From the NCBI GenBank assembly GCA_051362555.1, contig CM120641.1:36772401-36836400 (forward strand): a DNA stretch of 64,000 nucleotides, read 5' to 3'. Source of the stretch: Lingula anatina (lineage: Eukaryota; Animalia; Brachiopoda). Positions 12,280 through 53,778 of the stretch are shown here, in pieces. Each line of letters opens with the position of its first letter. Position 1 is the first letter of the stretch. The position numbers and the translations under genes are program-made. Under the pieces are notes generated by a model. The model was not told where the DNA came from, ran no database searches, and worked only from the letters and a program-made list of their open reading frames with translations.

Positions 12280-12711
12280 TTAATTCAAATTTGATTTAAA
12301 TCCCACCTTAGAATAAAATAAAGGTTTCCAAGCATATACGTTTTGCACTAATCTGGCATAATCATTGCCTATATAAACATTGCATGCATCTACGTAACAC
12401 ATCGTGGCAGTACCTGGCTGTTTTTGAATATGAGGATCTGGCGTATTAAAGACAGTTTTGTAAATCTCTGATGATATGTTAAATTCTCCAGGAATGCATA
12501 CCTCTTTTGGGCATTTTTTAGCAAACAGAAAAGACCCCCTTCCTGAGGTGGGTGCTTCGATACATTTACCTAACCCAAGTGATTCTAAATACTTCATGCA
12601 TTGTTTCACTCCAGCAGACTTGAACTTGTTCAACTTTATCCTTTGTATTGTTCTTGCCAATACTATTGGCCCTGGGTTCATTAAGATGACTCTTCCTGCT
12701 TTGACAAAGTC
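12280..12711 (-). CDS. Terminal exon, non-ZF winged-helix-like domain (paralog of 18026-18442)
   Basis: ttttcag acceptor, phase 0, DFVKAGRVILMNPGPIVLAR..YLESLGLGKCIE..FAKK..stop; selector-like aggagttcact at 12887-12897. Confidence 0.7.
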   Translation of the reverse strand, partial: DFVKAGRVILMNPGPIVLARTIQRIKLNKFKSAGVKQCMKYLESLGLGKCIEAPTSGRGSFLFAKKCPKEVCIPGEFNISSEIYKTVFNTPDPHIQKQPGTATMCYVDACNVYIGNDYARLVQNVYAWKPLFYSKVGFKSNLN

Positions 12712-14420
12712 CTGAAAATTTCAAAATAACACGTACAGTTCAACCAGACCAGCTTTCTAAAAATATGTAAAGACAATATTATAGAATAGTGATTGCACTA
12801 CAATACATGAAATCTGACCTTTTTCTCATATCAGTTAATGCAATACAATTTGATTTATAAGAGATATGTCAGCACACAATAGAATGAGGAGTTCACTAAA
12901 AGCATGAAATCTGTATTTTTATTAGTTTATACCATAGCTTTATCATTTTTAAATCTCATATATTTTGGAGTCTTATTCACCGATTTTGGCTCATGGAAAA
13001 ATTGCCCTTTAAAAGAACAGGTCTTCATCCAAATTAGTATTTCTGTACATGTATACCTTATGTGGATGGATGAAATAAATTTAAATTGTGATATTAAAAA
13101 AGTGCATTCCAGTTTGCTTAACCAGCAATTACAAAATAATCTATTCTGTAAAAATTAAATTGTCTTCTCTGGTAATGTGCTGCAAAATCACACTTGGAGT
13201 TTCTGAACATGGGTCGCTTAACTCATTTGCATAGTAAAATGCATGTGTACCAAGTTGGTGGCCACTGTTCTGGAACACTCTGCTTCTAGCATGCTTGTTA
13301 CATACTAGTACATTGGGAAACCTTTCAGGACATATGCTGGGTGCCTCCGACTACTAGTTAGGGGCCACCTGTATACTTTTTTAAGTGTTTGGAGGTTATA
13401 TCCTAAGGTACACTTATGAGACATTGATGTTAGGAAATTTTTGGCTCAATTTCTGCATGCTTAAGGTAATGACTTGATCATTTCGACTGAAAATTCTTAA
13501 AATCAGGATATTCTTAGTGAGTGGTAGCAACACAATTGAAAAGCAGACTACCTAATGGTTGTATTCTATACAGCAAAAGCACCAAAATGCTACAGAGAAA
13601 TGTATCTTTAATGACTCCAAAATTATGTATCCAAAAATTAATAATTTCTGCTGGTTGAAACGATCGTGTCATTACCGTACATTTACTTTTTAAGAATGTG
13701 TTCAAAGAATGCGTTGATTCATTTATTCAGATATACTATCAAGGGGCATTTAAAACTCAAAAGCCATATTCTTTAAACTCAGCGGGAGATAAATCTCAAG
13801 TTGAAAAACATTTTTGAGAAGTAAGGAATATTGACAATGTTCCAAATATAAAAAAGGAGAAAGGGTTCATTGAAGTTGGATAAAAATAGTAACTGAAAAC
13901 AGGGTGTCTTATCACACACAGTAATATATTACTGTATATCTAGATCTCAAGATTTATAAATCTGTTTTCACAACAAACCAGACAAATCACAGTCATAAAA
14001 TCTACTTTATTCACCATAGCCATAGATAAAATTAAAAATTTCATAAATCCCAGGTAAGTATCAATCTGTTTCTGACTGCGTGCACGGGTTACTCCAACTA
14101 AAAGAAAAAAAGGAGAAAAGAACAAATTATACAAATTTAACCTTACTTATCATGTTATACTCTGATATCCAGTTATATCAATATTTGAAATGATATAACT
14201 TAGAGGGAAATATAATTGCATTTGAATAACCATAATTTCAGTCAGCAAGTTCTTGTTTAATTAGCTCCAAAGTCCTGAATTTAACTTGTCAATGACAAAT
14301 ATCAGTTTATCTGTGACTGAATTGTTCCTAATTTTATTCTGAATGAGCAAAGGTAAAGTAATAACTTTGAAAATTAAAAAGACCTTTGACCATTTCAATC
14401 TTGCTTCTAATAATACTTAC

Positions 14421-15813
14421 CTTCCTGAGACATCTGCGTGATGTTGAGATTTTAGAATTAATTGCTGCATTGACTTGTATAGCATTCAATCCTAATTTGG
14501 ACATTCCATAGACTGAATAAAAAAAGAGAATATAAAGTGGCTGCAATTTATCAAACTAATAAAATTAATATTCAAACTGGCAATTCTTTTAATCAATTAT
14601 ACATCATATTTAGACTTAAATTATGCTTAGTTACTTCAATAATATATCCCTCTTCTTATATGAAATTTACAACATTAAAATAGGCCTTATTTTATCAATA
14701 ACAGATAACATAAAAAAAGTAATGGCACAATATATACATATTCTTACAGCTGAAAATAAAAACATACTCTGTAGAGCCTTTGCCACTGGGGAGTCCTTCA
14801 AAAAGGAAACAGCAGTTTTTGAGGCAAGTTCGTGTGGGGTAAAAAAGCCATCAAACAACTTCTTCAAAACAAAGCTGCTAGGCTTATTGGTGCATTTTGA
14901 CAGTGTTTCCATAAGCCATTCTGATTCTACTACCAGGTCTGTCCCCTCTAGTCTGGTCATGCCAGGGTCAACCTCTTGTCCACTCTCCAATATCACCTGA
15001 AAAATTATTTGTCCATTTAACTTCATGATGACCAAAAGCTGTGAAAGCAAGAGAAATTTGACCTATCTTAGGAATCAAGATTAAGGAAATGACCTGGTGA
15101 CATACCAGACAAAAGTGGGTATAAATAACATATGACAATTAACAGTATTACAGTATTAACAGTATTTTACTGAAGCTAAAATATGCTTACAAAGTTTGCT
15201 TGCTCAATTCTAAGTCCTCTGCTGGGCTGGTATTTTTCTGTGTTTGGGTTCAGGTCCACACTGGGTGTCAAAAGCTGTTCTGAAATTGAAATGTAAAAAT
15301 CAGATAAAATATGTGATACTCTTTAGCACTTGAACATACACTTCTTTGTAGTCCCTCCAAATCAAATACTCATATAAATACTTCTTTTTAGCCAAATTTA
15401 TTTTGGTTAATAAGGATTTGACTGAAAAATGTACTGGAAAATTTTATAAAATTTTTTTGCACTAAAAAGCAATTTTAACAAAATGGATACATACCATATT
15501 TCAGCTGCAGCTCAGCATAGTCTACACATTTCTTTATGTTGTCTTTCCTCAGCGTCTCAATGGCTGTTGTAGCCTCTTGCAGTTTTTGCTGCAGCGAGAT
15601 GCATTCATTACACCCATTAGTGTCCAGCATGAGAAAGGCACAGCTGTGCATTGTAGTAGTATGATGATGCTGGGCCAGGCTGGGGGTGGTAGGAAGGGGC
15701 TGGGTCAGGAGTGCATAAGAAACAGGTGTAGGGCCTGTAGAGGGAGCTGGTGGTGGGAATCCCAAGATGTCAGAAGTTGAAGATGTAGTGGGTGCAATTA
15801 CTCCTATGCCCTT
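14421..15813 (-). CDS. Four-exon coiled-coil + BEN-domain module (exons 15495-15813, 15191-15279, 14768-14996, 14421-14512)
   Basis: GT-AG exons join in frame (phases 0/1/0/1/0): LQQKLQEATTAIETLRKDN coiled coil, then KPSSFVLKKLFDGFFTPHELASKT..VAKALQIYG..VNAAINSKISTSRR, which resembles a BEN domain. The last donor is phase 0, so it can join 14097 (LE*) or 12711. Confidence 0.7.
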
Positions 15814-16179
15814 CTGATAAAGAAAAAAAATTCAAATTTAGTTACAGTTAAATAGTCTTTTTGATTGTAAGTAATGTCAATTTGATGTCACAAATTTTGC
15901 AGGGGGTTTTCAGTACTCAACACTCAATCATTACTTCAAATTGGGAACGAGGGCATTTGCTACTTTCATATAAACTGAGAAATCTAATTTTGTGGGCTAA
16001 TGTCCACTGCACACTTAACACCCTTGTACAAATTGTACTCATTACCAGTGCAAAATTCTCGCTGGACGTCTGTGTTGTAATACCAGAACCATCTATTACA
16101 GCCCACAAGTTAATCCATTTGTCTTCAGCGCTCTTCGCACAGCTAGCAACTCTGTGTGGCACCAAAGGGCTTAACGCTC

Positions 16180-18025: not shown

Positions 18026-18442
18026 TTACAGAGTCAGTGATAATTCTGTTTCAATATACATCTCGCGTACTAATCTAGCATATTCATTGCCAAGAAAAGT
18101 ATCACATGCCTCTACAAAATGCAACTTGGCAGTAGTTTGTTGCTTCTGAATAAGAGGATCTGGTGTGTTAAAGACAATATTGTAAGCCTCTGATGATATG
18201 TTAAATTCTCCTGGGATTTGGATCTCTTTTGGGAGTCTTTTTGCAAACAGAAAAGACCCCCTTCCTGGGGTGGCTGCTTCAATACATTTACCTAACCCAA
18301 GTGATTCTAAATACTGCATGCATTGTTTCACTCCAGCAGACTTGAGTTTTTTCAATTTATTCATCTGCATCATCCTTGCCAATACTATAGGACCAGGATG
18401 TATCAAAATGACTCTCCCGGCAAAGACAAAATCTTGATATTC
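18026..18442 (-). CDS. Alternative terminal exon, winged-helix-like domain
   Basis: tttttcag acceptor, phase 0, EYQDFVFAGRVILIHPGPIVLAR..; selector-like gtaggttcacaggcttcac at 18820-18838. Confidence 0.75.
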   Translation of the reverse strand, partial: EYQDFVFAGRVILIHPGPIVLARMMQMNKLKKLKSAGVKQCMQYLESLGLGKCIEAATPGRGSFLFAKRLPKEIQIPGEFNISSEAYNIVFNTPDPLIQKQQTTAKLHFVEACDTFLGNEYARLVREMYIETELSLTL

Positions 18443-18857: not shown

Positions 18858-19145
18858 ATCCCCAATAAACCAATTGTTTTTCGTAGGTCAATCCAAGGCT
18901 GTGGGGACTTTTGCTGAGTGCAATCATATAATCTGAATGACACACCTCCTTGAGCAGCAAGGGGTTGATTAACTTGCGTGTGCATTTGGTCGCCATCAAT
19001 ATGAAGTCAAAAAGCTTTCAGAAGCCGAGCGCACATGAAAGTTAATCAGCCCATGACTACTCCAAAAGGCGTGTCATTCAGTTTATCTGCTGCATTTAGT
19101 AAGAGTACCTATGAAGACGAATTGATCTACATAGAATGGTAGCTT
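18858..19145. mobile_element. Degenerate palindromic MITE-like element (family B)
   Basis: Inverted arms (ctgaatgacacacctcc / ggcgtgtcattcag; gtaggtcaat / attgatctac); shares ttgctgagtgcaatca with 40815-41050. Confidence 0.55.
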
Positions 19146-19839: not shown

Positions 19840-20253
19840 CTATACACTATGAAAGAGTTCTGGATATAGCATCTTCATAAGTGCTTTCTCATGGTGGGCT
19901 TCAACCAGTTTCCGCAGTGTACTTTTAGTCAAATACCGATCTCTCTCTCTGTACTTTCTTTTGTACATTTCTGGTGTTATACAATACATTGATAATGTAT
20001 TTTCATCTATGTGGCTATTCTTCATAAAATTTTCCTTGAGCCCTAGAAAGAAGACCTGGAGTTTTCCACAGCCAATCTTCTCAAGATGTAACAAAAATTT
20101 CATGATGGTTGAAGACGTGGGACTCCGCGCTCCAAGTTTTCTCATAAATGCACGAGGATTGATGAATGGACCAGGATGCAACAGCAAATTCCTCTGGAGG
20201 ACATGCTCAGCAGAAAGCACAGAACTTGACAATACATTCTTGACTATAGGATA
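19840..20253 (-). CDS. Alternative terminal exon, winged-helix-like domain
   Basis: ttccag acceptor, phase 0, YPIVKNVLSS..LLLHPGPFINPR..HLEKIGCGK..; selector-like gtaggtg..aggtgttca at 21304-21331. Confidence 0.72.
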   Translation of the reverse strand, partial: YPIVKNVLSSSVLSAEHVLQRNLLLHPGPFINPRAFMRKLGARSPTSSTIMKFLLHLEKIGCGKLQVFFLGLKENFMKNSHIDENTLSMYCITPEMYKRKYRERDRYLTKSTLRKLVEAHHEKALMKMLYPELFHSV

Positions 20254-20389: not shown

Positions 20390-20637
20390 AGGGACCATTC
20401 CCACAGATATTTGGATCGATCTATCTCCTTGGGGAGTCTCCCTAAATTGCTATCAACTTAACTGGCTAAAATGTCTGCACTGCCTAGCCAAGTTGTTTGG
20501 GGGTAATTATCTTTACTCCCAAGCTGATTCTGTAGGTGTGACAGACAATTAAGCTGGTTAAGTAGATAGCAATTTAGTGAGACTCCCCAGGGAGTTAGAA
20601 CGATCCAGATGGATTGATCTAGGCATGGGAACCCACT
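20390..20637. mobile_element. Palindromic MITE-like element (family A)
   Basis: Long inverted arms ggggagtctccctaaattgctatc / gatagcaatttagtgagactcccc; related copies at 22264-22521 and 57848-58075. Confidence 0.75.
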
Positions 20638-21095
20638 CATAGTGAAGAGGGGCAAGATTGTTAAATGATAAAAGTTTGATCTATAGCAAAAGAAATTGAC
20701 CAAAATTTGACATTAAATGCCTTACTCACTTCATCAGGTGAGTAAAGCAAAAAATAGATATAAAGGCCTAAATTTTCCTGAATGTGGCGTGCGATGTCTA
20801 ACATTAATTTGGAGCCATTATGTGTTTTATTCAATCATTGTTTTCAAATCCAAATACAGAGTCAAACATAATAATGCTGTTCTGTTGATGATATCCCACC
20901 ATCCAGTTCTACCACAAGATCTAGGTTACCAATGGAGAGTAGTCTGTATTTAATTGTAGGCGAATTTGAAAAAAATTCTCAAACTTTGCAATTAAAAAAA
21001 AGTTGTGTGTAACTACTTTCTTGAAAATGATAAAGAAATGTAATTTCACTGTGATGCAGTTGTTTTTTTATGAAAAAAGACTTGCTTGATTCTGA

Positions 21096-21538: not shown

Positions 21539-21997
21539 TTATATAGAAGCCATTGGATTGGCTGGATTCTTTGGTGTGGTATCCTGGAATTCAAGGTATA
21601 GTTTTCTTAAAAAATCTGTGTGGCTCTTTCCAAAATGTTGTTCCACACTATTCATTAAATTTTCCTTCAAATTAACGGCAAGTTTTGAAAAATAATTGTC
21701 TTTCAAATAAAACTGCTGTTGGTATTCTTCATACTCAATATAATACAAAGAGTCCTTCACATCCAGAGGCGGTCTTTTCATGAAACATTGTGTGTGATGC
21801 CAGGCAACTATTATTCCTAGTCCCATGGCCTGTAGTTCTTCCAAAGCCTGATAAATGTCAGCAGATTTGAATTTCCGTATGAATGCATTTCCTCGGGCTT
21901 TGACCAAGCCTCTTACAGGCACAGCTGGTCCTGCATATCTCAAAACTGCATTCATAAGAAGTGCTTTGCTATTACTTGTTAGTGGAGTCGAAGGGAA
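21539..21997 (-). CDS. Alternative terminal exon, winged-helix-like domain
   Basis: tttttcag acceptor, phase 0, FPSTPLTSNSKALLMNAVLRYAGPAVPVR..ALEELQAMGLG..FMKRPP. Confidence 0.75.
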   Translation of the reverse strand, partial: FPSTPLTSNSKALLMNAVLRYAGPAVPVRGLVKARGNAFIRKFKSADIYQALEELQAMGLGIIVAWHHTQCFMKRPPLDVKDSLYYIEYEEYQQQFYLKDNYFSKLAVNLKENLMNSVEQHFGKSHTDFLRKLYLEFQDTTPKNPANPMASI

Positions 21998-22263
21998 CTG
22001 AAAAATATTGTGGTAGAGAAGCTACTGACACAACCATAAGAATTTGAGAGATGCAGGCATGCCTTAGATAATAACAAAACCGTACAAAACTTCAGACAAA
22101 AAGCTAATAGCAGTATATTTTCATATAATCTAATTTTATTAACATATTTCATCATTTTTTAGAATCGTATTACTGGAATGAGAAAAAGCTGCCTATTTAG
22201 CAATGAGCTTAAAAGATCTCCTCTTTGAACTGGCCAACTGCAGTGTATAAATGCAATATAGAC

Positions 22264-22521
22264 TGGGTTCCCATACCTAGATCAATCTATCAGGATCGAT
22301 CCATCTCCGAGGGGTTTCTCACTAAATTACTTTCAACTTAAGTGGCTTGGATGTCTGGGACGCCTACTGAAGCTGATAAACTATACTTAATTACCCCCTA
22401 GCAGCTTCAGTAGGCTGCTTGACAGACATCTAAACTGCTTAGGCTGATTGCAATTTAGCGAGAATCCCCTAGGAGATAGATCCATCCACAGTTAGTCCGA
22501 TAGGGTCTGGGAATGGTCCCA
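22264..22521. mobile_element. Palindromic MITE-like element (family A), inverted relative to the 20390 copy
   Basis: Ends tgggttcccatacctagatcaatc ... gggaatggtccca are the reverse complement of the 20390 copy ends; internal palindrome. Confidence 0.75.
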
Positions 22522-23217: not shown

Positions 23218-23553
23218 CTAAAGAATAGTAATATTATGAGTTTTCTTCATGTGGTCAAGCATACTTTTGACATGTACAAACAACTGGCCGCATCCTTCAA
23301 ACTGACATGGAAACTGTTGCGTTGAACAACTGTTCTCCTGTTCAGAGTGAATACTATGCCGTGTCCGCATGTGGGAACGCATGTTATCCCAACGCAAAAA
23401 CGTATGGCCACAGCCTTCATGCAGACATGGAAATCTCGTCCGTGAACGTTTGTCACGATGGATATCAAAATGCCTTCTTAGGTGGTGAGATTTTGAGAAT
23501 CTTCTCCCACATAAATGGCAGTGGAAAGGCAAACCTGTGGCACTTTTCTTTCT
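23218..23553 (-). CDS. Alternative terminal exon, 3 C2H2 fingers
   Basis: cttctag acceptor, phase 0, RKKSATGLPFHCHLC..FPCLHEGC..FPCQFEGC; selector gtaggtgttcact 23621-23633. Confidence 0.85.
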   Translation of the reverse strand, partial: RKKSATGLPFHCHLCGRRFSKSHHLRRHFDIHRDKRSRTRFPCLHEGCGHTFLRWDNMRSHMRTRHSIHSEQENSCSTQQFPCQFEGCGQLFVHVKSMLDHMKKTHNITIL

Positions 23554-24310: not shown

Positions 24311-24514
24311 CTAATTGTGAAAATTTTTCAGATGAGTCCTCTTAAAATGCCTTCGCATGCTGTCATAGGACAGATATCTCTGCACACACCCCTGCACTGG
24401 GCACTGATACATTGGCCTCTCTTTCATTGCCTGGTGTACACTCATGTGGCGCACCAAGTGGTGCCGTAGTGCAAACCTCCGCTGACATTGCTGACACTGG
24501 TGGTAAAGGAATAC
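24311..24514 (-). CDS. Alternative terminal exon, 2 C2H2 fingers (not in ORF track)
   Basis: VFLYHQCQQCQRRFALRHHLVRHMSVH..YQCPVQGC..HFKRTH; phase 0; selector caggtgttcactgatgttca 24806-24825. Confidence 0.82.
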   Translation of the reverse strand, partial: VFLYHQCQQCQRRFALRHHLVRHMSVHQAMKERPMYQCPVQGCVQRYLSYDSMRRHFKRTHLKNFHN

Positions 24515-41050: not shown

Positions 41051-41086
41051 TACTGGTGGGCTAGCACTGTAAATATGCCTTGCACA

Positions 41087-41431: not shown

Positions 41432-41476
<45 letters not shown>

Positions 41477-41901
41477 GAGTGGCAAATCAATCTTTTTAAA
41501 ATTCAAAAACTGCCTGTGCTCACAAAAAGTTTCAGGTGACAAGAGTTATTTTATTATGTTAACACTCATTACATAAGTACTGCAGGGGACCAGTTTCTTT
41601 TTTAAGGGGGATTTGGGAGTGAAAATAATCATCAATATTAAGAGGATGTCGTTTTTTTTTTATTATTTACGGTCTTCCTTTCACAGAAGAAGATACTCCA
41701 AAAATTTCATTTATTTTCCCATTTCCCTATATCTTCATCTGATTCGATTCAATAAAATATAGACAATAAGAACATTAGGTTAATTTATTTGAAAGAAATT
41801 AACAATAAACATCAGTTTAAAGATTACTTATATATTTATTTTGTATCAATTAAATATAGCAGCTTACAAATATAAAGGTTGAAACTGGGTAACAAGTCAC
41901 A

Positions 41902-42117
41902 TTATAAGGTTTCACATCTTTTTTTGTGTATTTTCATATGTCCTATCAAGACATCTGAGCGCAAAAACCCTTTTTGGCAAATGTCACACTTATAGATCTT
42001 TTTTTGTAGATGTATATTGACATGCCTCATTAAATGTCCCTTTTGAGCAAAATTTTTAGGGCAGTGGGGACAACAGTATCTTCCAGAGATAGAACTTGCG
42101 GATTCCTCTTGTGCAAC
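41902..42117 (-). CDS. Alternative terminal exon, 2 C2H2 fingers (not in ORF track)
   Basis: VAQEESASSISGRYCCPHC..HVNIH..YKCDIC..HMKIH; selector taggtgttcaccaggt 42412-42427. Confidence 0.85.
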   Translation of the reverse strand, partial: VAQEESASSISGRYCCPHCPKNFAQKGHLMRHVNIHLQKKIYKCDICQKGFLRSDVLIGHMKIHKKRCETL

Positions 42118-42429
42118 CTAATACAAATAGCAAATAGTGACTTGAAGAGCTCTACAAATAACTATTCAATTAAGAACTAGTACTTCAAGAACAACGTTTT
42201 TATTATTTCCAGAACTTGCCCTTATGAAATTTCAAAATTTAAGTTACACTGAAAATGCTACTGCTTGCAGATCTGCAACCAAATGGCATGCTGGATACCC
42301 AAGTGCCCTACTTCCACTTGTCACTCAAAACAATATGACCTTTCACCTGAGCATAACTCATTAAATTTAAAACTGATCAAACTGAGAAGATTAGAGTACA
42401 ATTCTCCCCTTTAGGTGTTCACCAGGTCC

Positions 42430-42651
42430 TTAGTGTGACCCTTTTGGGGTAGGAAAAATATTTTTGTGCTTATATCTCTGGTGGCTGAGTAAAGTGTCTG
42501 TCCGGGAAAATGTCTTCCCACAGAGATAACATGGATAGGTTTTCTCCAGGTGAACATTCATATGCCTGGTTAAGTGACTTTTCTGACCAAAACTTTTCCC
42601 ACAATAAGAACAGACGTGTCTTCTAGCATTTAATATTCCGTCTTCAGTTAC
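42430..42651 (-). CDS. Alternative terminal exon, 2 C2H2 fingers
   Basis: VTEDGILNARRHVCSYC..HMNVH..YPCYLC; selector tagtgcttcacaggtgt 42749-42765. Confidence 0.87.
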   Translation of the reverse strand, partial: VTEDGILNARRHVCSYCGKSFGQKSHLTRHMNVHLEKTYPCYLCGKTFSRTDTLLSHQRYKHKNIFPTPKGSH

Positions 42652-43491
42652 CTGACAATGAATAATATTCACTATAATTTCACTACATTTAACCTTTTGA
42701 GGCAAGATTAAAATGTTTTTGATCAAATATAAATATTTTGCTTAAAACTAGTGCTTCACAGGTGTAAGTCCTTCATACATAAAATGCTTCATATTTAAAG
42801 AAACTGCTTTTGATAGAAAATTCACCCACCCAACTCTGATTCTGTAAGTATACAAGCTATTACTAAATGCCAATACAAACATAACTAAAATATTATTCAA
42901 CAATTGTAATCACAAAGGTGAAAAAACAAGTCCCTATAGAAGACCTGAAAAACAAAAGTACATTTCCTTTACCTCCAGAGGTCAGTAATAAAAAAATTCA
43001 CTTTGCTTTTAATTCAATCTTAATACATGTGGAGAGACCCTTCAGTCCCCAGAACTGTGGTAACATAACTAAATAAATTAACAATAACAAAAGACTGTCC
43101 AAAAATGTATCCTCAAAGTAATTATAGAGATTTATCTCCAAACAAATATCCTTATGGCTGGGTAAGTGACATTCTGAGCAAGATCATTCATCAAAGAACG
43201 ACAGGTATTACAAGTTATACAGCAAATTTCACAAATATACAGAAAAAAGTTTCTATCACATTTTGCCAAAAAAAAAAAAAAAAAAAGAAATCTTTTCATT
43301 GTAGAGTAACTGTTTTGTAACACAAAGCTTTGTAAACTTAAACTATTTCAGTACCATTGTCCAAGAACTGTTACAAAAATCCCTAAACCACATAAGTCAT
43401 GTGCTTCAAATCAAATGCAACATATCCCACGCACAAAATTATTAATTGTGAAAGAAGAAGCATTTTCTTAAGTTGATCCTGAAAATGGTTC

Positions 43492-43713
43492 TCAGATGAA
43501 CCCCTTGGCTCCGAGGACCTCATTTCTGTGTTTTCCCCTCTGGTGACTTAACAAGTTATCTGTTCTGTTAAAACTTTTCCCACAGAAGGAGCATGGGTAG
43601 GTCTTAGCAAGGTGAACATTCATGTGTCTGTTTAAGTGACATTTCTGCACAAAACTTTTCCCACAAATGGAACAGATGTGTCGCTTGCAGCTTGAATTTT
43701 CTTCTCCAGCCAC
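43492..43713 (-). CDS. Alternative terminal exon, 2 C2H2 fingers (close paralog of 42430)
   Basis: VAGEENSSCKRHICSIC..HMNVH..YPCSFC; selector ctgtggtccacaggtgtt 43774-43791. Confidence 0.87.
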   Translation of the reverse strand: MAGEENSSCKRHICSICGKSFVQKCHLNRHMNVHLAKTYPCSFCGKSFNRTDNLLSHQRGKHRNEVLGAKGFI

Positions 43714-44002
43714 CTAGTAACAATTTTTTTTCAATGTATCTCGACAGTATGTTTTATATTATTTTAAGGCTGTCTGTGGTCCACAGGTGTTGGCTTTTCA
43801 GTCACAAATTCAAGAAAAATGCATTAGATTTCTTTGATTGTTTCAACGATGAAAATCCAAAATTTGAGTTTCCTTTTTTTCTAATGGACGAGGATATGAA
43901 AAATCTTTAGTTTTACAACAATAAGGAAGCTTTACAACTATTTTCTGTGAAAAATTTTTCTTAGAATGATTTCCTAGAAAAATTACTTTAACCATGCATT
44001 AT

Positions 44003-44185
44003 TTACTGGACATGGTTCACTTTCACATGGGACTTCAGATTGTCCTTTCTATTAAACACCTTCCCACAATGTTCACATGGGAACAACTCTTGGAAGTCGC
44101 CATGTAGCTGCATATGGCGTTTCAAATTACGAGGAGAACTGATCCACTTATGACAGAGATGACACTCCACCTTGCCTTGCTTGTT
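44003..44185 (-). CDS. Alternative terminal exon, 2 C2H2 fingers (not in ORF track)
   Basis: NKQGKVECHLC..HMQLH..FPCEHC..HVKVNH; selector tgttcattggtatc 44228-44241. Confidence 0.85.
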   Translation of the reverse strand, partial: NKQGKVECHLCHKWISSPRNLKRHMQLHGDFQELFPCEHCGKVFNRKDNLKSHVKVNHVQ

Positions 44186-45089
44186 CTGAAAAAGGTGACC
44201 AGGATTTAGGATAAACTATGGTACAATTGTTCATTGGTATCCACTGTAAGTTTTTTGCATTTACATTACGCTGCACACAGGTAGAGGACTGTTGTCGACG
44301 GACCACCAAATGCCTTCACAAGCGTGTCCAAACAATTTTTTTGTCAAATCTCTTTCATTACAATTTGAAACAGCCGGGTTGGCAATCTTGCACAATTGCA
44401 CCACTCAGCTGTCAACATCAGAGATTGAACACAACTGGTGTGCAATTAACACTCAATTTGTCTCAAAACATATCTTTAGCCATAGAGCCTCTCTTGTTTG
44501 CAATATTTACCCAAATCACTCTAGCTAGCAACTTATTAAAATTTTCAAAGTAAATATTTGGTTTCATTAGGAAAATGAAACTTACTATCATGGTCTTTCT
44601 CACGTCTCCTTAGATCATCACTCTTGAAATTTTCTCCAAAATATTTACACACTTGCCCATCATTACCTCAGACAAGGTTAGTTCATTTGTTCACAGCATT
44701 ATGCAAAAGTAATGGGCAATTTTCATGAAGTTTTCAAGGAAAGATCACAAATTTGTACAATTAATTGATTAAATAATTAATGTTTAATTGTTACTTATTT
44801 GTTTTGGCAGAGGTCTGCCCTGAGCGCCTTTCTAGTTGTACATTTTTTTATTTCATGTTAAAATTTTTTGTGAAAGGGTATCCACATATTCTACAAAGGA
44901 ACCTCCGAGTCTGGAATAAGTAAAATATTCTCTTTTTGTGTTTTTATTGACATGGATGCACCAAATTTCCAGCAGTATAAAGCAATTGTAAAACATACCA
45001 ACAGGGAGACTTCAGAAATTGTATCACAAAGAAAACAGAACTTGAAAAAGTCATATCCAGACGAAATCTGCAGAGCTGCCATTTACCAC

Positions 45090-45302
45090 CTAACTCCTCT
45101 GGTTTGCTACAAATTTTTTCTTCAAGCAAGCAATCATGTGTCTTTTTAAGTTATCCCCGCGATTAAATGTCCTGCTACACTGAGAACAAGTCAGCAGAGT
45201 CTGAGTAGTGTGGTTTTTTACGTGCCGTTTCATGTTACTGGGACAGGTGAATGCAACATCACAAATATTGCACCTGTATTCTGGCTTTCCATGCTGTGAC
45301 AC
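45090..45302 (-). CDS. Alternative terminal exon, 2 zinc fingers
   Basis: VSQHGKPEYRCNIC..HVKNH..LTCSQC; selector tagtgctcccagtg 45452-45465. Confidence 0.85.
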   Translation of the reverse strand: MSQHGKPEYRCNICDVAFTCPSNMKRHVKNHTTQTLLTCSQCSRTFNRGDNLKRHMIACLKKKFVANQRS

Positions 45303-45642
45303 CTGAGATACAAAACAGTGCAAAGGTAGAAAATGGATTAAAATAAAACAAAGACAAATGTGCGACGGGGAAAAACTCCAATTTTAATTTTTTGTTGTTC
45401 TTCTTCTACATTATTTTTGTATCGTGAGTCAACTTCTGCTTGCCTGTTTGCTAGTGCTCCCAGTGATTTTAAGTGTCAGCTTCAACATATCCCATCACTT
45501 CCATGACATTATAGCTTTTCATTGTAAAACAAGTTTAAAAATAATTTTCAATGACACTTATTGTTAACATCGTAACAGATGGTCAATAAATAAATTTTCT
45601 CCTGCTGCAGTCCAAACCACAAATTTTGATTTAAAAAAAAAA

Positions 45643-45903
45643 TTAGGTCCACTTTATACTAGAATGATACATGGAATGCTCGTTTTTATGAGCCTTCATA
45701 TGCTGTGTCAGCACATCACTCCTATAGAAAACCTTCCCACATGTACGGCACTCATACGTCCTTTTCCAGTGAATATTCATATGGCGATATAAGTTACTTT
45801 TATTGACAAAACTCTTGTTGCAAGCCAAGCACCAGTGTTTTGAACCCACTGTTACCCATGTTGCGGAACCTGCAGCTGAGCCTTTTGTTTCTTTTCTCAT
45901 CAT
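45643..45903 (-). CDS. Alternative terminal exon, 2 C2H2 fingers
   Basis: ttttag acceptor, MMRKETK..HWCLAC..HMNIH..YECRTC; selector ggtgttca 46063-46070. Confidence 0.85.
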   Translation of the reverse strand: MMRKETKGSAAGSATWVTVGSKHWCLACNKSFVNKSNLYRHMNIHWKRTYECRTCGKVFYRSDVLTQHMKAHKNEHSMYHSSIKWT

Positions 45904-46163
45904 CTAAAAGGAGCAAATGGACAGCAACTTTGGAACTTGATCAAAGATGGGAGCATAAACAGAGATTCCAAACATACTATCATGCAGTTAAAGTTTGGAA
46001 AGTGATATTTCTGAGTAGGTTTTTTTTATTGGAGGGGCATCAGTACGTGCTATTTTAGACATGGTGTTCAGAATTAAAGATTTCTTTATCCAAGCAGCCA
46101 CCTGCCAAACCACTTTTCTATAATTAAACAGTTTCCTTTTTTTTAAAAGCATTTTGGCAGTTA

Positions 46164-46409
46164 TCACGACATGGTGAGATTTTTCTGATGACTTTTTACA
46201 TGAGCATTCATGACATCTCTTCTATGAAATGCTGCCCCACATTTTAAGCAAACATGTTTTCTTGGTTCGTGGGAGTGCCGATGTCTTATCAAACTGCGCC
46301 GATGTACAAAACATCTTCCACATTCCTCACACTCATGTTTTGTCTCCTCTCTGCCTTGAAACAAATCCAGCCATGTTGAACTGGACAAAGGGGTATCAAA
46401 ACCAGGTAC
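46164..46409 (-). CDS. Alternative terminal exon, 2 C2H2 fingers
   Basis: acatag acceptor, VPGFDTPLSS..HECEEC..HRHSH..HVCLKC; selector ctgtggtgctca 46543-46554. Confidence 0.8.
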   Translation of the reverse strand, partial: VPGFDTPLSSSTWLDLFQGREETKHECEECGRCFVHRRSLIRHRHSHEPRKHVCLKCGAAFHRRDVMNAHVKSHQKNLTMS

Positions 46410-46993
46410 CTATGTAATAAACATTAATTCACTACAGATTCTTGTGTACTTAGTTACTCAAATGAGAGACTTCTGCAAAAACAGCACTAAATATTGTATG
46501 TAAATTTGTACTTAAACTAAGAGATATTACTGCATGGTATTCCTGTGGTGCTCATCAAGAATAACTTGTGTCCCAAAAAAATTAATTTGTAAGTATGAAA
46601 ACCAGATTATAGAAACCATTAAATTCCTTTATTTAACTTATATGAAATTATAATAATGGGCATATAAGTAGGGAAGAAGCATACTTGTACACAGGATTAA
46701 TACAGTTTCAAGGTTCTACTGTAATGTGCAGTATGGCCTTCAAGGGTACTATTTGTATGTAGTATCATTCTATTATAAATAAACATATTAACATCCTAGC
46801 AGAATATATATATATATTTTTTTGAATGATTGTATCCATGAGACCATTGTATCCATGTAAAATATTGCTGCCACGCAACACCAGCATTATCCATAGCTGA
46901 GCACATCCCTCTCTTATGAAAAAGTCATGATACGTCTTAACTTATAAGGTATCTAGGCTACAATTTTCCAAGGCAATATTCTTTAGTCAAGCA

Positions 46994-47173
46994 TTAAAAT
47001 GTGGCTAGGTGTGCTCTTCTTTTATGAAGAAGCAATGTATCATCCCTGCTAAACAGCTTATCACAGTAGTCGCACCGAAACCGGATTTCTGTGTGTATCA
47101 ACTTATGTCTGTTCAGGTTCCTCTGCTGGGTGAAGCCTGATCTACAAATCTCACAGAAATACACCTTAGGGGT
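46994..47173 (-). CDS. Alternative terminal exon, 2 C2H2 fingers
   Basis: tttcag acceptor, TPKVYFCEIC..HKLIH..FRCDYC; selector-like ctgcaggt..tgctcac 47237-47260. Confidence 0.83.
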   Translation of the reverse strand, partial: TPKVYFCEICRSGFTQQRNLNRHKLIHTEIRFRCDYCDKLFSRDDTLLLHKRRAHLATF

Positions 47174-47283
47174 CTGAAATAAAGATGGGCAACTTATCTC
47201 ATTATTTTTTTCTTTGGAAAAAAAAAATACTGATGCCTGCAGGTAGTAGTACATGCTCACGACTAAGATAAAGTAGTTGAATT

Positions 47284-47619
47284 CTATTGAGTAGTTTCAC
47301 TGTCAGCAGATGCAGGACGCATTACAGCAGACGTGGGGACAACAAGCTTTTTTCCTGTTAGTGGCATCCCAGCAGCTTTCTGGTGAACGTGACGAGTGTG
47401 CTCAAGAAGATAGTCGCTTCGTTTAAAAGCTTTGCCACAGGTGAGGCAGACAAATCGCCTATGAGTATGCACATTCATGTGTCTTCGCAAGTTGGTTAAA
47501 AGAGTAAAACTCTTGTGACATATTGTACATGGAAACCTCTTCTGCTGTTGAAGATCCACACCCATCTTAATTGGTGTTGCTTTTCTGTAAAGTGAGCCCA
47601 TTACTCTTGCTCTGGGTAG
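47284..47619 (-). CDS. Alternative terminal exon, 2 C2H2 fingers
   Basis: tcctag acceptor, LPRARVMG..FPCTIC..HMNVH..FVCLTC; selector ctgtagtgcacaggtat 47707-47723. Confidence 0.82.
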   Translation of the reverse strand, partial: LPRARVMGSLYRKATPIKMGVDLQQQKRFPCTICHKSFTLLTNLRRHMNVHTHRRFVCLTCGKAFKRSDYLLEHTRHVHQKAAGMPLTGKKLVVPTSAVMRPASADSETTQ

Positions 47620-48033
47620 CTAGGATTAATACAAGAAAAATATCTTACTAAGACTGCCCTCATTCAGATTCTTGTTAATTCAAATGAAGCAAGCACATAT
47701 ACAAGTCTGTAGTGCACAGGTATAGATAATGGGGAAAATCCCAATATTTGGAACCATGATGCTGATGCTAAATTAGTATACATATGTTAAATTAATGATA
47801 CTGGATGTCTTTTTTCTACAGATGTTCTTGAAAGTGTTATCAATATACAATATATATGATCATTTTTGGTTTGTGTACAATCACATCCTTGGGGAGTAAT
47901 TTTTCACCAAATTTCAAATGCTAAACCCTACATGAAAACCAATCCATCTTTATACTTTTTCACCAAAATAATCTACACCTTAAATTCCTTAATGCACATT
48001 TGAATCTTGAAATGAACAAAAAATGCTACCATC

Positions 48034-48306
48034 TCACTCTGGTATTTGACATTCCCTATTTGATTCACTAACATGTACATCCTTATGGCAGTTTCTAAAA
48101 TGATTTTTCAAACTGTCACTTCTAGAAAATTCACTTTTGCAGACAGTACAGTGCCAGGTTTTATTGCGATGAACATTCATGTGCCTTGATAAATTGTTGA
48201 CATGTTTGTAACTCTTCAGACACAATGGGCATTGGTATTTCCCTACAATTTCCATATAATATCGGTGGTTTCCTTCACTGTCTGTATAATGATTTCTTCC
48301 ATTACT
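48034..48306 (-). CDS. Alternative terminal exon, 2 C2H2 fingers
   Basis: ccacag acceptor, SNGRNHY..YQCPLC..HMNVH..WHCTVC; short selector cacaggtg 48419-48426. Confidence 0.85.
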   Translation of the reverse strand, partial: SNGRNHYTDSEGNHRYYMEIVGKYQCPLCLKSYKHVNNLSRHMNVHRNKTWHCTVCKSEFSRSDSLKNHFRNCHKDVHVSESNRECQIPE

Positions 48307-48629
48307 CTGTGGAAAAATAAAAGATATGAAGAAACAAAGGCATATATGCATTCTACTTTTGAATATTCTTAGTATTTATTGCAAGATTCATATCTACTTT
48401 TTCTACAATCCAAGCCCCCACAGGTGGTAGTACTTTTTTGCCACTTTAAAGTGTTGTTTTTTGTCAAAATTTATGATGTATTCCACATTTCATGCAGGTA
48501 AGTTAACAGTGACAGTCAAGAAATCCAGCTACTCTTTTAAAAGTCTTGGCTTATGCTGCTGAAATCATTAGCATTTTTCTTGTGACAGTATAGTTTTTGT
48601 ATGGATTTTATGTTGTTAATACAGCTCCT

Positions 48630-48842
48630 TCACTTCTTTTTCCGTTTGTGGACATACTTCATGTGATTATCCTTCCTTTGCAATATAAAAGCTTGACAAA
48701 TTTCACAGAAGAAAGATTTGTGCTTGTGAACTGTGTTTATATGGCGCAGAAGGTCATGCTTGAAATTAAATTCCTTGAGGCACATTGCACATGCAGGTTT
48801 TTTAGATGAATCTCCTGAGCTACACACTACACTGTGTTCTTC
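48630..48842 (-). CDS. Alternative terminal exon, C2H2 finger plus atypical short finger
   Basis: ctcaag acceptor, EEHSVVCSSG..ACAMC..HINTVH..FCEICQAFILQRKDNHMKYVH; selector gctcactggtgggtcac 48953-48969. Confidence 0.8.
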   Translation of the reverse strand, partial: EEHSVVCSSGDSSKKPACAMCLKEFNFKHDLLRHINTVHKHKSFFCEICQAFILQRKDNHMKYVHKRKKK

Positions 48843-48954
48843 CTTGAGAAAATAAAATGAAATACTTCCATTAAACTACATTTGTCACCGTCATAAATGG
48901 TCTCCTTTTTTTTTTTTTTTACACCACCAGCAAAAGATGCGGGTCACATAACGC

Positions 48955-49245
48955 TCACTGGTGGGTCACTTTTCCTGTTACTCGTTTCCTATTGTGGGCA
49001 AACTTCATGTGGTTATCTTTTCTCTGTAGTACAAATGCCTGACAAAGGTGGCAATAGTGGGGTTTTCTTTTATGCACCACATCCACATGTCTTGTCAACG
49101 AAGATTTACAAACAAATTTTTTCTTGCACTGGTTACAAGCTAATTTTTTCGTCAAGTTTGATTTTTCAGCATTTTGGAGGAGAGAGCCCCCTGGATAAGG
49201 TGACACACCTGGTCCCCACCTTAACTCCTCAGAAACAGCATGCAC
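48955..49245 (-). CDS. Alternative terminal exon, C2H2 finger plus atypical short finger
   Basis: caccag acceptor, VHAVSEE..LACNQC..HVDVVH..YCHLCQAFVLQRKDNHMKFAH; selector ctcacaactgttcaatggt 49367-49385. Confidence 0.82.
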   Translation of the reverse strand: MHAVSEELRWGPGVSPYPGGSLLQNAEKSNLTKKLACNQCKKKFVCKSSLTRHVDVVHKRKPHYCHLCQAFVLQRKDNHMKFAHNRKRVTGKVTHQ

Positions 49246-49632
49246 CTGGTGGGTAAGAAAAGGGAAAATATCCATGTCCTGGCACAACATTAAGCACCAA
49301 AGAAACTAAAACTACTTTTTCTTTTGGGAAAAAAAGAATGTATTCTAGGGGCTTTGAATAAGGAAACTCACAACTGTTCAATGGTTTCGCTTATATTTCC
49401 CTTCTGTCATCTAATCTTGTCACAAAGCATAATGCAGCATGTACATATCATAATTTATATATTAAGTGAATAAAATATCAATAAAAAAACTTAAATATTT
49501 GTACATACTGACAAAAACTATAAACAATTCATGCCTTAAGAAAATTCGACAAAAAGTATCAAACTATCCTGACCACAGAGTTTACACAGCATCCAAGCAC
49601 AGAGCTCGTGTTCTTTTTCGGATTCTATTATT

Positions 49633-49896
49633 CTACTGTGGAACATCAGGCTTTTTAGTTGGTTTTATCTTATGAAATGATTTCATATGATTATCTCTTC
49701 TTTGTAAAATAAAGGCATCACAGAGATAACAAAAGAAAGTACGACTCCTATGAATAGTATTCTTATGCCGTGACAAACTTGTCCTGTCACTAAGTTCTTT
49801 ATTACATATTTCACACATCCATTTCTTAGTATCAGACAGAGCCTCTTTCGTGGGGGTTGGGGTTGACAAGAACATTTCACTGTTCATCCCAAGGGC
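49633..49896 (-). CDS. Most proximal ZF alternative terminal exon, C2H2 finger plus atypical short finger
   Basis: atgtag acceptor, ALGMNSE..WMCEIC..HKNTIH..FCYLCDAFILQRRDNHMKSFH; short selector ttcactggt 49964-49972. Confidence 0.83.
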   Translation of the reverse strand, partial: ALGMNSEMFLSTPTPTKEALSDTKKWMCEICNKELSDRTSLSRHKNTIHRSRTFFCYLCDAFILQRRDNHMKSFHKIKPTKKPDVPQ

Positions 49897-50279
49897 CTAC
49901 ATAAAAGAAATATGACAGTTATGCTACAGACACACTGAGCTTTGTATCACATGTATTAGTTCATTCACTGGTTGAATGCTGTACAGTATGCAAAGCCTCT
50001 TGGTGCTCTTGTGCTAAATACACCAAATTTCATTGAACTGTGTCCTTTTATCATTGATATACAAGAGCATATTCCCTATCATTCATCTTTATTTGTATTA
50101 CCCCTACAATTCACATATGCATCAGCGTATTTTTTGTACTATTATCATTAAAATGATAGCCCTTTCACATTCATACTGGACCACACAATCTAGCACAATT
50201 CATCTAGCAGAGTTGTTTTTTTTTCACACATTCAATAGGGGCTTAAAAATCTAAGCACAAATTTAGCACAACGATTTTC

Positions 50280-50326
<47 letters not shown>

Positions 50327-51106
50327 AAAATGGTATATTAGATGCTTTCTCTGAGACATTTGCAATGCACAGCATATATATATACCAAGGACTTTACAGT
50401 GTAAAACCTAAGTGAAAATCAGTGTGATTTTGAATGCAATACTAGAGCTGATATCCACTGTTAAAAAACCGAATAGGTCAATCCATGATTAGAATTTGTA
50501 TTTGGGTGCATCTACCTGGAGTAAAATTTTCTATCGGGACACACCATGCAACAATTAACAAAGAAATAAATCTCGATAAAAAGTCATTAATCATTCCAAG
50601 TTGATACTTGCCCCATTGCTCTCATTATACTCAACTAATACTGGAAAATAATCCACAACTCAAAACAGAAGAATTCACTTTATTTTCCAAATAAAAAAAT
50701 ATTTACAAGGGTATATAAAATGTATATCAGCAACACAGAAAGCCTACCCCTAGATCATGTCTTTTCATACCATCATAAATGCCTATTTGCCAACCTAATA
50801 GCATGCGGTGTGGAATCTATATATTATTTATAGTAGTATAAATTTGATTTCTTCCAGCTGCAGCAGCAATTATATAACAATATAACCCAGACTAACAACT
50901 TATGCATGACCAGCTGTAGGTCATGGCAGCCCTGACTAGCAAATAATGTGGTAGAGATGGGCTTGGCGGGTGGCTGAGAAACTCCAAATTTTGGTCATTT
51001 TTTTTCTTCTCCAAATTTGGAAGAAATAATAAAAGGAATGCACTTTTTTTTCATCTTTCAAATGAGAAATGATTCAAATTTTGGTTCAATTTTGTGTTTT
51101 GTTTTG

Positions 51107-51150
51107 GCCAAAATTTTGTGACACCAGTGAACACCTGTGAGCACCTACAG
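51107..51150 (-). promoter_or_regulatory. Putative intronic RNA docking site for mutually exclusive terminal-exon choice
   Basis: + strand gccaaaattttgtgacaccagtgaacacctgtgagcacctacag (RNA: CUGUAGGUGCUCACAGGUGUUCACUGGUGUCACAAAAUUUUGGC). Single copy, ~1.2 kb after the common donor, reverse-complementary to motifs upstream of ~30 alternative exons. Confidence 0.8.
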
Positions 51151-52385
51151 ACTGTACATGCAAGCATCAGCTGCCTTAAATATGGAGGGCAGCTACTAGG
51201 CTTGGGGGTCTAAGAAATCTGTCAGACACGAAACAAATATATTTAAATATATATACAGATACATATATTAATACTATAGATTTACTTCTATATTCATTAC
51301 TCTCAGTTGTCACAAATATTTAAACATTATTTTTTAAATTTCAAAATATTAATGGCAAGCTGTTAACTTTTAATTCAAAAATTTCAAACCATTTAAAAAT
51401 TAAATCAATTGACAATTTAAACCAAGTTTCAAAAGATCAGCCAATCCAAAGCCCATTTTCTGAAAAGTCTATGTCTGTTATCTGTCTATTAATTTGCTGC
51501 TGTAAGTTTTTTTTTTAAATCTTGTTAATGACATACTTGCACAGTTTCTCTTAAATGAAGGGGTCACCCCAGGTGGAGTTTAATTTTTTCAGAAACAAAA
51601 GAAAAAGCAAAAGGTAAACAGTTCACTTCATACGGGCTGCATCGCTTATCTTTTGAGAGGACAGATTTCCTAAACCCCAAGCCAGGTTAAGGGAAAGAAC
51701 AGAAACAGAGAGAATGTTCATATTAAAGTTAGAAACTGCGAGCTCAATAACCATCCCATTTTTCTTAAAAAAAAAAAAAAAACATTCCTTTAAAATAATG
51801 TCAACCTGTTAAGACATGATAACTTGACATTGGAAATGTAAGACAATTTGATATCCAAGTGCCGAAAATAGTACACTGCAGTTTCCAGCTTTGAATTCAT
51901 TTTTTTTTTTTTCAAAATACTAGGCAAATTTGATCTCAACTTTACAATTCCAAATAAATACCAAGGTTTTTCTGTCATTCTTTTTTTTTTTTTTTTGTCA
52001 AATGTGCCTAGATATAGCAATACCCATCCATTCATCCAGGCACACTAGAAATTTATACTGAAGTGAGGATGGATTCTTCATGGATGGATACAATTCAATG
52101 TAAAAGAACAAGCAGAAGCAAAGTGAGATTTCTTTCAATACAGTGAAGTTGTCATTTATTTCTCAAAAACTTTCGATAATGTATAAATGCAAATGACACA
52201 CATCTTTTAGGCTATAACAATGAATTTATTGAAATGGGAATTCACCAGGACTACTTTTGAGGACAGCTCAGCATTTTGCAAAATTCCACATGCTGGATTG
52301 AACCTAGTTCTTGCACAACCAGAAATCTCTCCCACTTTGGCTTGTATCCTGAGTAAAATATTGGTACAAAAAGACTGGTACTTAC

Positions 52386-53446
52386 ATTTCTTGGTTTGGC
52401 AGGAGACTGTGTTTGAGAACTGCTGCCTTCACCAGCACTGTGATCAGGAGATTGCCAGTTGGGAATTAAAGAGTTATTTGGATCTGAGGGGAATGATAAA
52501 GAGTCTGATGCCTGACTGGGACCAGCACCTTCATGTTCTTCATTTGCTATAGAGAAAAAGTCTTGTATGAATGGAGTGGATTGTGCTTGATCATTGTCCG
52601 AGTTAAATGAAGACACCACCCCCGGTGCTATAAATGGCCCAGGAGGAATATCTTGACTTAAACTTTGGTCCCCCAAACTTTGGTGAGATTCACCGTCGTC
52701 TTTGTCAGAAAGTTCGACTACATCTTCCTCTTTTTTAATTTCTATTATCACATCTTTGGCATCAAAGGGGTTTGTGTTCATGTTGTCAGTATGACTGTTT
52801 GATTCTTGGGTATTTGAGCAATCAGATTCAGGAACAAGCTTTGGTCTTTTGGAAGCTGATGGGTCCATCACATGAGGGGAGCCTGAAGCTGCACTTGGAG
52901 CCCCAGAAGCTGCACTTGGCTCAGATCTTTTCCCAGCAACATTTCTGTACAACTGTCTTGGAGAAATTGTCTTTTGTGGTGCTACATCATCTTTTTCTGG
53001 TCTTCGACCAGAGTGAAATGTAGTCAGTTTTGTATGAGTGTTTCTATATTCTACTGAGGAAGGAGAAGTGAGATCTGGCAATGAAACGTGATCACCAATG
53101 TGGGGAATTGCCTGTAATGTAGGGTCATTAGTTTTTTCTTGAGAAACATTTCTTGGTTCTGAAATATATAGACTAGTAGAATCTTGAGCACCTTTTCTAT
53201 GAGTAGCACCATCATTTCTGTTTAAAAAAGTCTGCCTGTCAGGAAGCATGTGTCTTTGATGAGGAGAGATTGCTGCAGGTGGTGGTGGTTCAGTTCCACC
53301 CCCTGCATCCCCTTGATAAACTTTGAAAACTTTCATTATCTGAGCCACAAACCTCCCATCTTCATATCCAATTTCCAAATTTGAAAGTTCAAGTGAAACT
53401 ACATTTTCTTGTTTGCTTTTCACTTCAATACTGTGTTGAAATTCAC
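52386..53446 (-). CDS. Common (constant) exon 2 of the multi-isoform ZF locus; long disordered Ser/Pro-rich region
   Basis: tctttag acceptor (phase 1); ORF 52251-53465; ends SPAKPRN|gtaagt, a phase-0 donor at 52385 compatible with all downstream exons. Confidence 0.85.
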
Positions 53447-53669
53447 CTAAAGATAGATAATACAAAATTCATGCCAAGTGAAAAGGTATAAAACTTTTCA
53501 AAGTTGCACACAAACATTGCACGAAACAATTTGCTAAATGCTTACATCTAAATTTCAATGGTTTCTGAGCACAAAAGTGTTTAATTCCACCAACCGTTTA
53601 ACACTATGCAAGAAAAAAAAGCTTATTGAACAAAGCAACTTGAGACATACACAACAGCTTTTTTCATAC

Positions 53670-53778
53670 CTTCTGTATTTGTTGCCACAAATTTGCACAG
53701 CTGGCTTTCGTTTAATGCAGCACATGTTTTAACCAGGTCCAGTGGCAAGTGTATGTCAAGCTTGGAAATCTTCAACAT
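53670..53778 (-). CDS. Common coding exon 1 (ATG at 53778): MLKISKLDIHLPLDLVKTCAALNESQLCKFVATNTE
   Basis: ttttcag acceptor before 53786, ATG 8 nt inside the exon, phase-1 donor g|gtatga matching the next exon. Confidence 0.75.

Follow-up and report, generated by a model that had tools for sequence, protein, structure and literature searches.

The closest described counterparts of the gene analysed here are lola and mod(mdg4), which attach alternative endings to one constant region. In lola, a BTB domain of the TTK type is joined to alternative 3' exons encoding C2H2 zinc fingers, and the available text of PMC11426971 counts 20 isoforms, 17 of them with C2H2 fingers. The same source gives at least 30 isoforms for mod(mdg4), and the accessible part of PMC13490949 gives 31, trans-spliced from five promoters. 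In these portions of the two sources the layout is tied to the arthropod-specific TTK-type BTB, and the choice of ending is called unclear (PMC11426971; PMC13490949). A second group of systems pairs a docking site with selectors: in this way a choice is made among the 3' cassettes of PGRP-LC, CG42235 and Pip (10 in Pip) and among the 48 internal exons of the Dscam1 exon 6 cluster (PMC6191721, citing Graveley 2005, as far as the accessible text goes). Here we describe a gene of the brachiopod Lingula anatina, encoded on the minus strand of a 64,000-nucleotide stretch of contig CM120641.1 (assembly GCA_051362555.1, positions 36,772,401 to 36,836,400). This stretch is called the window below, and all positions refer to it. 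The gene feature is real and expressed, and several different last exons are spliced alternatively onto its constant part.

Like lola, the Lingula gene places a long linker behind a constant N-terminal region and has a wide choice of terminal exons, most of which encode two C2H2 fingers. It differs from lola in carrying an unclassified domain of 82 amino acids, with no BTB found by sequence, and in having 36 endings, among them tails predicted to be winged-helix-type and BEN-like. It also belongs to a brachiopod and not an arthropod, its layout is common to at least five Lingula loci, and a set of candidate docking and selector sequences is evident in it; a literature search for docking sites and selectors in lola with zinc fingers found no paper. 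With mod(mdg4) the gene shares a similar count of endings on one constant region. The mod(mdg4) exons, however, lie on both strands with five internal promoters, encode mostly FLYWCH tails and show no functional intron complementarity, according to the part of PMC13490949 available, whereas all 36 Lingula modules are collinear on the minus strand and clear complementarity is present.

Constant exons and alternative last exons

The constant coding sequence comprises 53778-53670 and 53446-52386 on the minus strand, amounts to 390 codons and ends at a phase-0 GTAAGT donor (52386). The first constant coding exon (53670-53786) contains the ATG at 53778 followed by 36 codons and one nucleotide; the second (52386-53446) encodes the remainder of the N-terminal domain and a low-complexity linker. 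On the 3' side of the donor lie 36 terminal modules: 31 C2H2 exons, four exons predicted to be of winged-helix type and one five-exon BEN-like module. The C2H2 exons were located between 49896 and 23218 on the minus strand by a six-frame scan with a C2H2 pattern; three plus-strand matches to the pattern were rejected, as they are not finger arrays. In every module the frame is open from a phase-0 AG onwards and closes with a stop that belongs to the module, and the endings are therefore mutually exclusive. A Met ahead of the domain or within the first 25 residues was found in nine modules, and none in the other 27.

RNA reads from four of nine runs bearing the same species label (X1, X4, X7 and X9; 6-30% of each) were mapped on 33796-53795, and joints were tabulated from three reads in a run upwards. 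The joint between the constant exons, 53670/53446, is spanned by 52, 4, 28 and 26 reads in the four runs. From the donor at 52386, GT-AG joints lead to the acceptors at 49896 (11 reads in X1, two in X4), 45903 (three in X1, two in X4), 43713 (five in X1, one in X7, three in X9) and 35341 (seven in X1). Junctions in the distal array (12.5-32.5 kb) are either predicted or supported by loose read ends at the donor. Loose ends match the starts of the modules at 26831 (13 reads in X1, four in X4) and 15813. The latter accounts for the largest read count seen at the donor, 43 loose-end reads in X1 with a consensus equal to 15784-15813; their agreement is 0.81, so part of these reads belongs to other exons. 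In total, six of the 36 endings are supported by RNA, four by joints and two by loose-end matches, and the remaining 30 acceptors are predictions. No joint between modules was listed in 33796-53795 in the four runs. The depth of X1 is 132 on the constant exon against 0.35-6.6 in the bins of the array, with reads in all 30 bins. In the stranded runs X1 and X4, the reads of the array and of the constant exon lie on one strand, except at a repeat near 40.9 kb. All four runs show opposite-strand reads and numerous loose ends at this site (40860-41000), which is likely a repeat expressed from elsewhere.

We regard it as practically certain that the locus consists of one constant region with alternative last exons. 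This is the core of an original prediction, made from the window's letters, which had proposed one constant region of about 390 residues ending in a phase-0 GTAAGT donor and followed by swappable ends. The four joints, the two loose-end matches and the many-tailed paralogs described below support it, and the check proposed at that time, a search for junctions from 52386, returned the four acceptors named above and no modules spliced in series in 33796-53795. The predicted 31 zinc-finger and four other exons were recovered on the minus strand, with their frames, their own stops, readable phase-0 acceptors and, mostly, no ATG. That tally missed the BEN-like module (15813-14089) and a 5' exon whose 3' end is at 54795, and the prediction lacked the docking and selector elements and the gene family. 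Its description of the acceptors as pyrimidine-rich suits some of them but not others: the pyrimidine fraction of the chosen acceptors ranges from 0.37 to 1.0, and the lowest value belongs to the RNA-confirmed acceptor at 43713.

A candidate docking site and its selectors

A motif near GTGAACACCTG precedes many of the acceptors, and its reverse complement occurs once, at 51158-51119 on the minus strand, in the intron that follows the common donor. This candidate docking site, 1.2 kb past the donor, is 40 nt long, consists of three imperfect tandem units and is complementary to short tags in front of most acceptors. Since the motif had been spotted by eye, blind window tests were run. The site ranks first among 174 intron windows by predicted duplex energy with the 36 upstream zones (mean -29.7 versus -16.2 ± 3.2 kcal/mol). 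Among the 12,792 sense windows of the 64 kb it again ranks first, with matches to 22 modules at 9 nt (14 for the next window) and to 15 at 10 nt (8 for the next); the runner-up windows are A/T-rich. Exact complements of at least 10 nt number 15 in the acceptor-proximal zones (30-310 nt before the acceptors, 9.3 kb in total), and none is found in the 28.8 kb of other array sequence or in the 21.4 kb outside; the corresponding antisense counts are 0, 1 and 1. At 8, 9 and 10 nt, the site matches 27, 20 and 15 of the 36 modules, compared with means of 3.5, 0.8 and 0.2 and maxima of 9, 4 and 3 in 300 sets of shuffled targets. The longest match before the six constitutive acceptors is 5-6 nt. The tags pair with different, overlapping parts of the site. 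A second candidate docking site at 50715 was rejected as A/T-rich (GC content 0.20). Two orphan selector-like tags, at 21331 and 30688, have no intact module within 330 nt, and are possibly relics of lost exons.

These statistics suggest that pairing between docking site and selector, acting in cis, probably picks the ending, and we put it forward as a statistically strong, unproven candidate mechanism. A number of results weigh against this picture. Joined acceptors are four of the 22 within the mapped stretch, at the threshold of three reads and with 6-30% of the runs. An exact complement of 8 nt is absent from nine of the 36 modules, including the RNA-supported module at 35341 and the best-supported one, at 15813. 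No preference for G-U wobble was found (transitions: 36 of 307 among the compatible, 22 of 207 among the incompatible; p = 0.41), in a test where the tandem units of the docking site blur the register. Peaks of duplex energy are about as dense outside as inside the locus (8.5 versus 9.2 per kb at -18 kcal/mol and 2.9 versus 2.4 at -24 kcal/mol), so that only the exact-match statistics discriminate. The best of 1000 shuffled docking sites matches 18, 12 and 8 modules at 8, 9 and 10 nt, and the local fold of the docking region is unremarkable (z 0.22). Folding of the 1.35-kb intron start gave nothing interpretable.

Under the proposed mechanism, a single promoter would give rise to one pre-mRNA, in which the constant exons join one of many alternative last exons, as seen for six of the 36, with the phase-0 donor reaching acceptors up to 36.6 kb away. 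The 40-nt docking site would hold one selector at a time; the pairing would loop out the intervening RNA and bring the chosen acceptor close to the donor, and after splicing the RNA would end at the next poly(A) site. Endings without a tag, such as the BEN-like module and the module at 35341, might be the default choice or use the tag of a neighbour. The modules at 35341, 47173 and 48842 begin only 62-112 nt past the previous stop (pairs 35631/35341, 47619/47173 and 49245/48842), and these spacers contain neither AATAAA or ATTAAA nor an 8-nt tag of their own. The three modules may share the upstream tag and the downstream poly(A) site with their partners. Many fixed substitutions separate runs X7 and X9 from the window, with most of the reads 95-99% alike; these runs may represent a diverged population or a sister species and could be a source of covariation between docking site and selectors.

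The arrangement resembles Dscam1, PGRP-LC, CG42235 and Pip in having a single candidate docking site in the intron that follows the constant exons and candidate selectors before the alternative exons, and, as for PGRP-LCa, one ending seemingly works without a selector. It differs in that the tails are of transcription-factor type and the organism is not an arthropod, and its 36 terminal modules outnumber the 3' clusters in the accessible text of PMC6191721. Docking in Dscam1, PGRP-LC, CG42235 and Pip was proven by compensatory mutation, whereas the Lingula docking site is a candidate predicted from sequence.

The same products could arise by trans-splicing as in mod(mdg4), with the variable exons transcribed from promoters of their own and the pairing, if real, formed between two RNAs. 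Junction reads do not separate cis from trans, and there are precedents: all 31 mod(mdg4) isoforms are made in this way in the account of PMC13490949, lola too is described as trans-spliced in PMC11426971, and RNA pairing aids trans-splicing of chelicerate sDscam in PMC9258826, in each case in the portion of the source available. We nevertheless hold trans-splicing to be rather unlikely here. All 36 modules share one strand and lie 3' of the donor, and no CpG-rich window was found in the array, where the best windows have 8-12 CpG per 400 nt (a weak indication); mod(mdg4) itself is described as lacking usable donor-acceptor complementarity in the accessible text of PMC13490949.

Alternatively, the last exon could be chosen by ordinary competition between poly(A) sites and splice sites, with the tags being a protein-binding motif or relics of duplication and their complementarity incidental. 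The tags contain a CACCTG core, which we take to be E-box-like. Such a choice would agree with the lack of a clear tag at the best-supported ending (15813) and at the RNA-joined 35341, with the null wobble test and with the presence of AATAAA or ATTAAA after most modules, and an intronic motif would be multiplied by tandem duplication. Against it, the orientation of the tags is strict (in the zones, 15 matches at 10 nt are sense and none is antisense), they match differing parts of the docking site and not one core, and they persist although the exon proteins are only about 33-42% alike and the introns have no long repeats in common. Moreover, the best complementary site of the 64 kb is located in the one intron where a docking site would have to be. 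We give this explanation little credence, and retain docking in cis as the preferred reading. That many modules are independent tiny zinc-finger genes or dead exons, with few real endings, is hardly credible: 30 of the 36 junctions are unseen and the depth over the array is low, but in 27 modules no Met precedes the domain, every module has an open frame from a phase-0 AG, X1 reads occur in every one of the 30 depth bins, and 22 proteins retrieved for the paralogous locus LOC106170880 have 21 distinct annotated tails.

The modules of the array

Counted from the donor, the array opens with zinc-finger modules 1 (49633-49896, RNA-joined), 2 (48955-49245), 3 (48630-48842), 4 (48034-48306), 5 (47284-47619), 6 (46994-47173) and 7 (46164-46409), all like those that follow on the minus strand. 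Module 8 (45643-45903) is RNA-joined, and is followed by modules 9 (45090-45302) and 10 (44003-44185). The RNA-joined module 11 (43492-43713) is 76% identical to module 12 (42430-42651), after which come modules 13 (41902-42117) and 14 (41087-41374). Module 15 (39739-40173) has a candidate selector of 12 nt at 40322-40311; modules 16 (39270-39512) and 17 (38312-38578) precede module 18 (36914-37180), with a 13-nt candidate at 37415-37403. Next are modules 19 (35973-36218) and 20 (35404-35631, putative selector near 35728-35711) and the RNA-joined module 21 (35096-35341), whose 62-nt spacer is without a selector. Modules 22 (34563-34781), 23 (33615-33800), 24 (32246-32464) and 25 (29550-29780) lead to modules 26 (28481-28702) and 27 (27692-27907), with 12-nt candidate selectors at 29011-29000 and 28026-28015, respectively. 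Module 28 (26661-26831) is the one matched by loose ends, and a 56-nt tandem duplicate at 26946-27057 lies immediately 5' of its putative selectors. The zinc-finger series closes with modules 29 (25774-26022), 30 (24311-24514, 13-nt candidate selector at 24818-24806, acceptor uncertain) and 31 (23218-23553), which has three fingers.

The acceptors of modules 3, 23 and 30 (48842, 33800 and 24514) are AAG, and these three placements are guesses. The second finger is atypical in the modules at 49896, 49245, 48842 and 33800. Pfam zf-C2H2 scores above its cut-off in five of the six zinc-finger modules scanned, among them modules 8, 11 and 28; the module at 49896 falls below it. In the protein comparison adjacent modules are 41.8% alike, against 33.2% otherwise, which suggests that the array would have grown by tandem exon duplication. 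No long intron repeats common to the modules were found in the array.

The four remaining single exons form one family, whose members are also found as tails in LOC106157998/LOC106150702. All have predicted acceptors and lie on the minus strand. The module at 21539-21997 aligns with that at 18026-18442 and with paralog tails, the module at 19840-20253 has a 10-nt candidate selector (20538-20529), and the most distal one, 12280-12711, is an 82% DNA duplicate of the module at 18442. An AlphaFold2 model of the latter has a predicted local distance difference test score (pLDDT) of 90.6, and winged-helix proteins head the list of its structural neighbours (best Z 7.7, root-mean-square deviation 2.9, 78 residues aligned). 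With Z below 8, the model names a winged-helix fold but no family. No longer relatives of a winged-helix-type module were found among 7,993 candidates, which is weak evidence. Hairpin-type inverted repeats lie among these modules at 20409-20638, 22261-22488 and 18925-19089; we take them to be like miniature inverted-repeat transposable elements.

The RNA-supported BEN-like module, with a predicted product of 245 amino acids, is split over five minus-strand exons (15813-15495, 15279-15191, 14996-14768, 14512-14421 and 14097 to the stop at 14089). Its end resembles BEN clusters of the ESM Atlas in language-model features (0.92; BEN on 20-33% of the cluster members). Pfam gave no match for it or for the winged-helix-type modules. 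The tails of the array are predicted to bind DNA.

At the promoter end, loose read ends at 53788 match 54797-54826 and indicate an additional upstream 5' exon on the minus strand (54795-54900; the 3' end at 54795 is exact, the 5' limit provisional). The exon is likely non-coding, having an in-frame stop and no Met upstream of the ATG at 53778, and therefore conceals no BTB. It is contained in the sole CpG-rich window of the locus in a CpG scan (54601-55000). The array is flanked on its distal side by plus-strand genes that converge on it: laminin-G exons at 640-3711 and, at 5038-10471, a frame of 1298 codons, in which Pfam recognises nine FN3 stretches, with WD40 exons after it.

The N-terminal domain and the gene family

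The N-terminal domain begins at the first Met and comprises 82 amino acids. It is 62-84% identical to the corresponding domain of five paralogs, the linkers being 19-36% identical. The constant exon matches RefSeq proteins of Lingula anatina, and at least six Lingula constant regions share the domain when near-identical pairs are counted once. Several tails on one constant part occur in four of the five other loci: LOC106170880, the locus with 21 distinct tail starts among 22 retrieved proteins; LOC106157998, with five among six; a paralogous locus on an 880-kb contig, with five among five; and LOC106156073, where the three proteins viewed have three different tails. The fifth locus (P0050) is a single record. 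The paralogs P0009-P0014, P0036/37, P0044 and P0047-49 add tails that are Myb/SANT-like (PF13837), of zf-C17orf113 type, probably BEN-like, or basic and helical. In a tree of 51 finger pairs, weakly supported and based on 52 columns, the tails of the locus are interspersed with those of LOC106170880 (9 and 8 label changes), a hint that the array predates the duplication of the locus. By the proposed history, the whole unit would have been copied to at least six loci.

The only RefSeq protein found for the locus itself is P0001 (LOC106156780), with 98% identity across half of the query; its tail is that of the BEN-like module at 15813, and the two end alike. The expectation that automated annotation would split the locus into many small genes is thus borne out only in part, since this is the single protein found for the locus, yet isoform numbers reach X36 in the annotation of one paralog. 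The first 19 residues of P0001 differ from the window and the N-terminal domain is absent from it; the frame of the window near ~52940 is open and covered by RNA, as if the reference behind P0001 carried a frameshift.

A hidden Markov model search of 1.84 billion representatives returned 11 matches, seven of them Lingula RefSeq proteins and four Logan proteins, and the domain looks lineage-restricted at the sensitivity of this search. The Logan proteins P0015, P0016, P0051 and P0052 contain parts of the domain (78% over the matched part in two) with the same apparent exon edges and diverged linkers. P0059 and P0060 were left out of alignment A4, as they did not align with the domain. A metagenome scan for relatives yielded one locus among 93 candidates (L001), which was rejected as the antisense of another gene on a bacterial contig.

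No Pfam family was found on either constant exon. In agreement with the original prediction, no BTB was recognised: none at E<=1 in nine full-length family proteins, and none when the family profile was compared with PDB sequences at E<=10, where the ZBTB rows correspond to finger regions. The structural model of the N-terminal domain is of low confidence (pLDDT 45-70 over residues 1-80), with one clear helix and five strands. Foldseek with this poor model gave nothing at E<=0.001 and no Sm row in the list shown, and a wide structure search was filled by a C-terminal helix. The ESM Atlas had no usable match to the domain, and tblastn against phages had none. The top matches among PDB sequences are Sm D3, with E=1.3-1.6 over 25 columns, and Pfam LSM was not matched by the family proteins; an Sm/LSm fold is a lead only. 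The conserved domain might play the part that BTB has in lola and mod(mdg4), likely by self- or cross-association, and one scaffold could in this way be directed to many DNA sites.

The Lingula gene follows the working principle of lola and mod(mdg4), but by its sequence it is no member of their group, because the BTB that defines it was tested for and not found. A lola-like layout built in a brachiopod on an unrelated-looking domain points to convergence, and the Lingula family is likely an independent invention of the lola design. Our literature search, over titles and the starts of abstracts, found nothing on the locus or the family; the Lingula genome papers and their supplements may bear on novelty. 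What appears to be new is the candidate 40-nt docking site with its tags. The RefSeq model found for the locus carries one of its 36 endings. The locus exposes a simple, readable candidate code for choosing among endings, with one docking site and about 27 tags. It also contributes a conserved protein domain that is unclassified, together with a family of winged-helix-type tails. It is possible, though doubtful, that brachiopods independently built a complete lola-like system: at least six genes in which BTB is replaced by a new N-terminal domain that oligomerises, perhaps a repurposed Sm-like fold, with swappable zinc-finger, winged-helix, BEN and Myb/SANT tails and an RNA docking switch in the style of Dscam that selects one tail for each transcript. 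If so, mixed oligomers across loci could yield a large combinatorial set of DNA-binding complexes.

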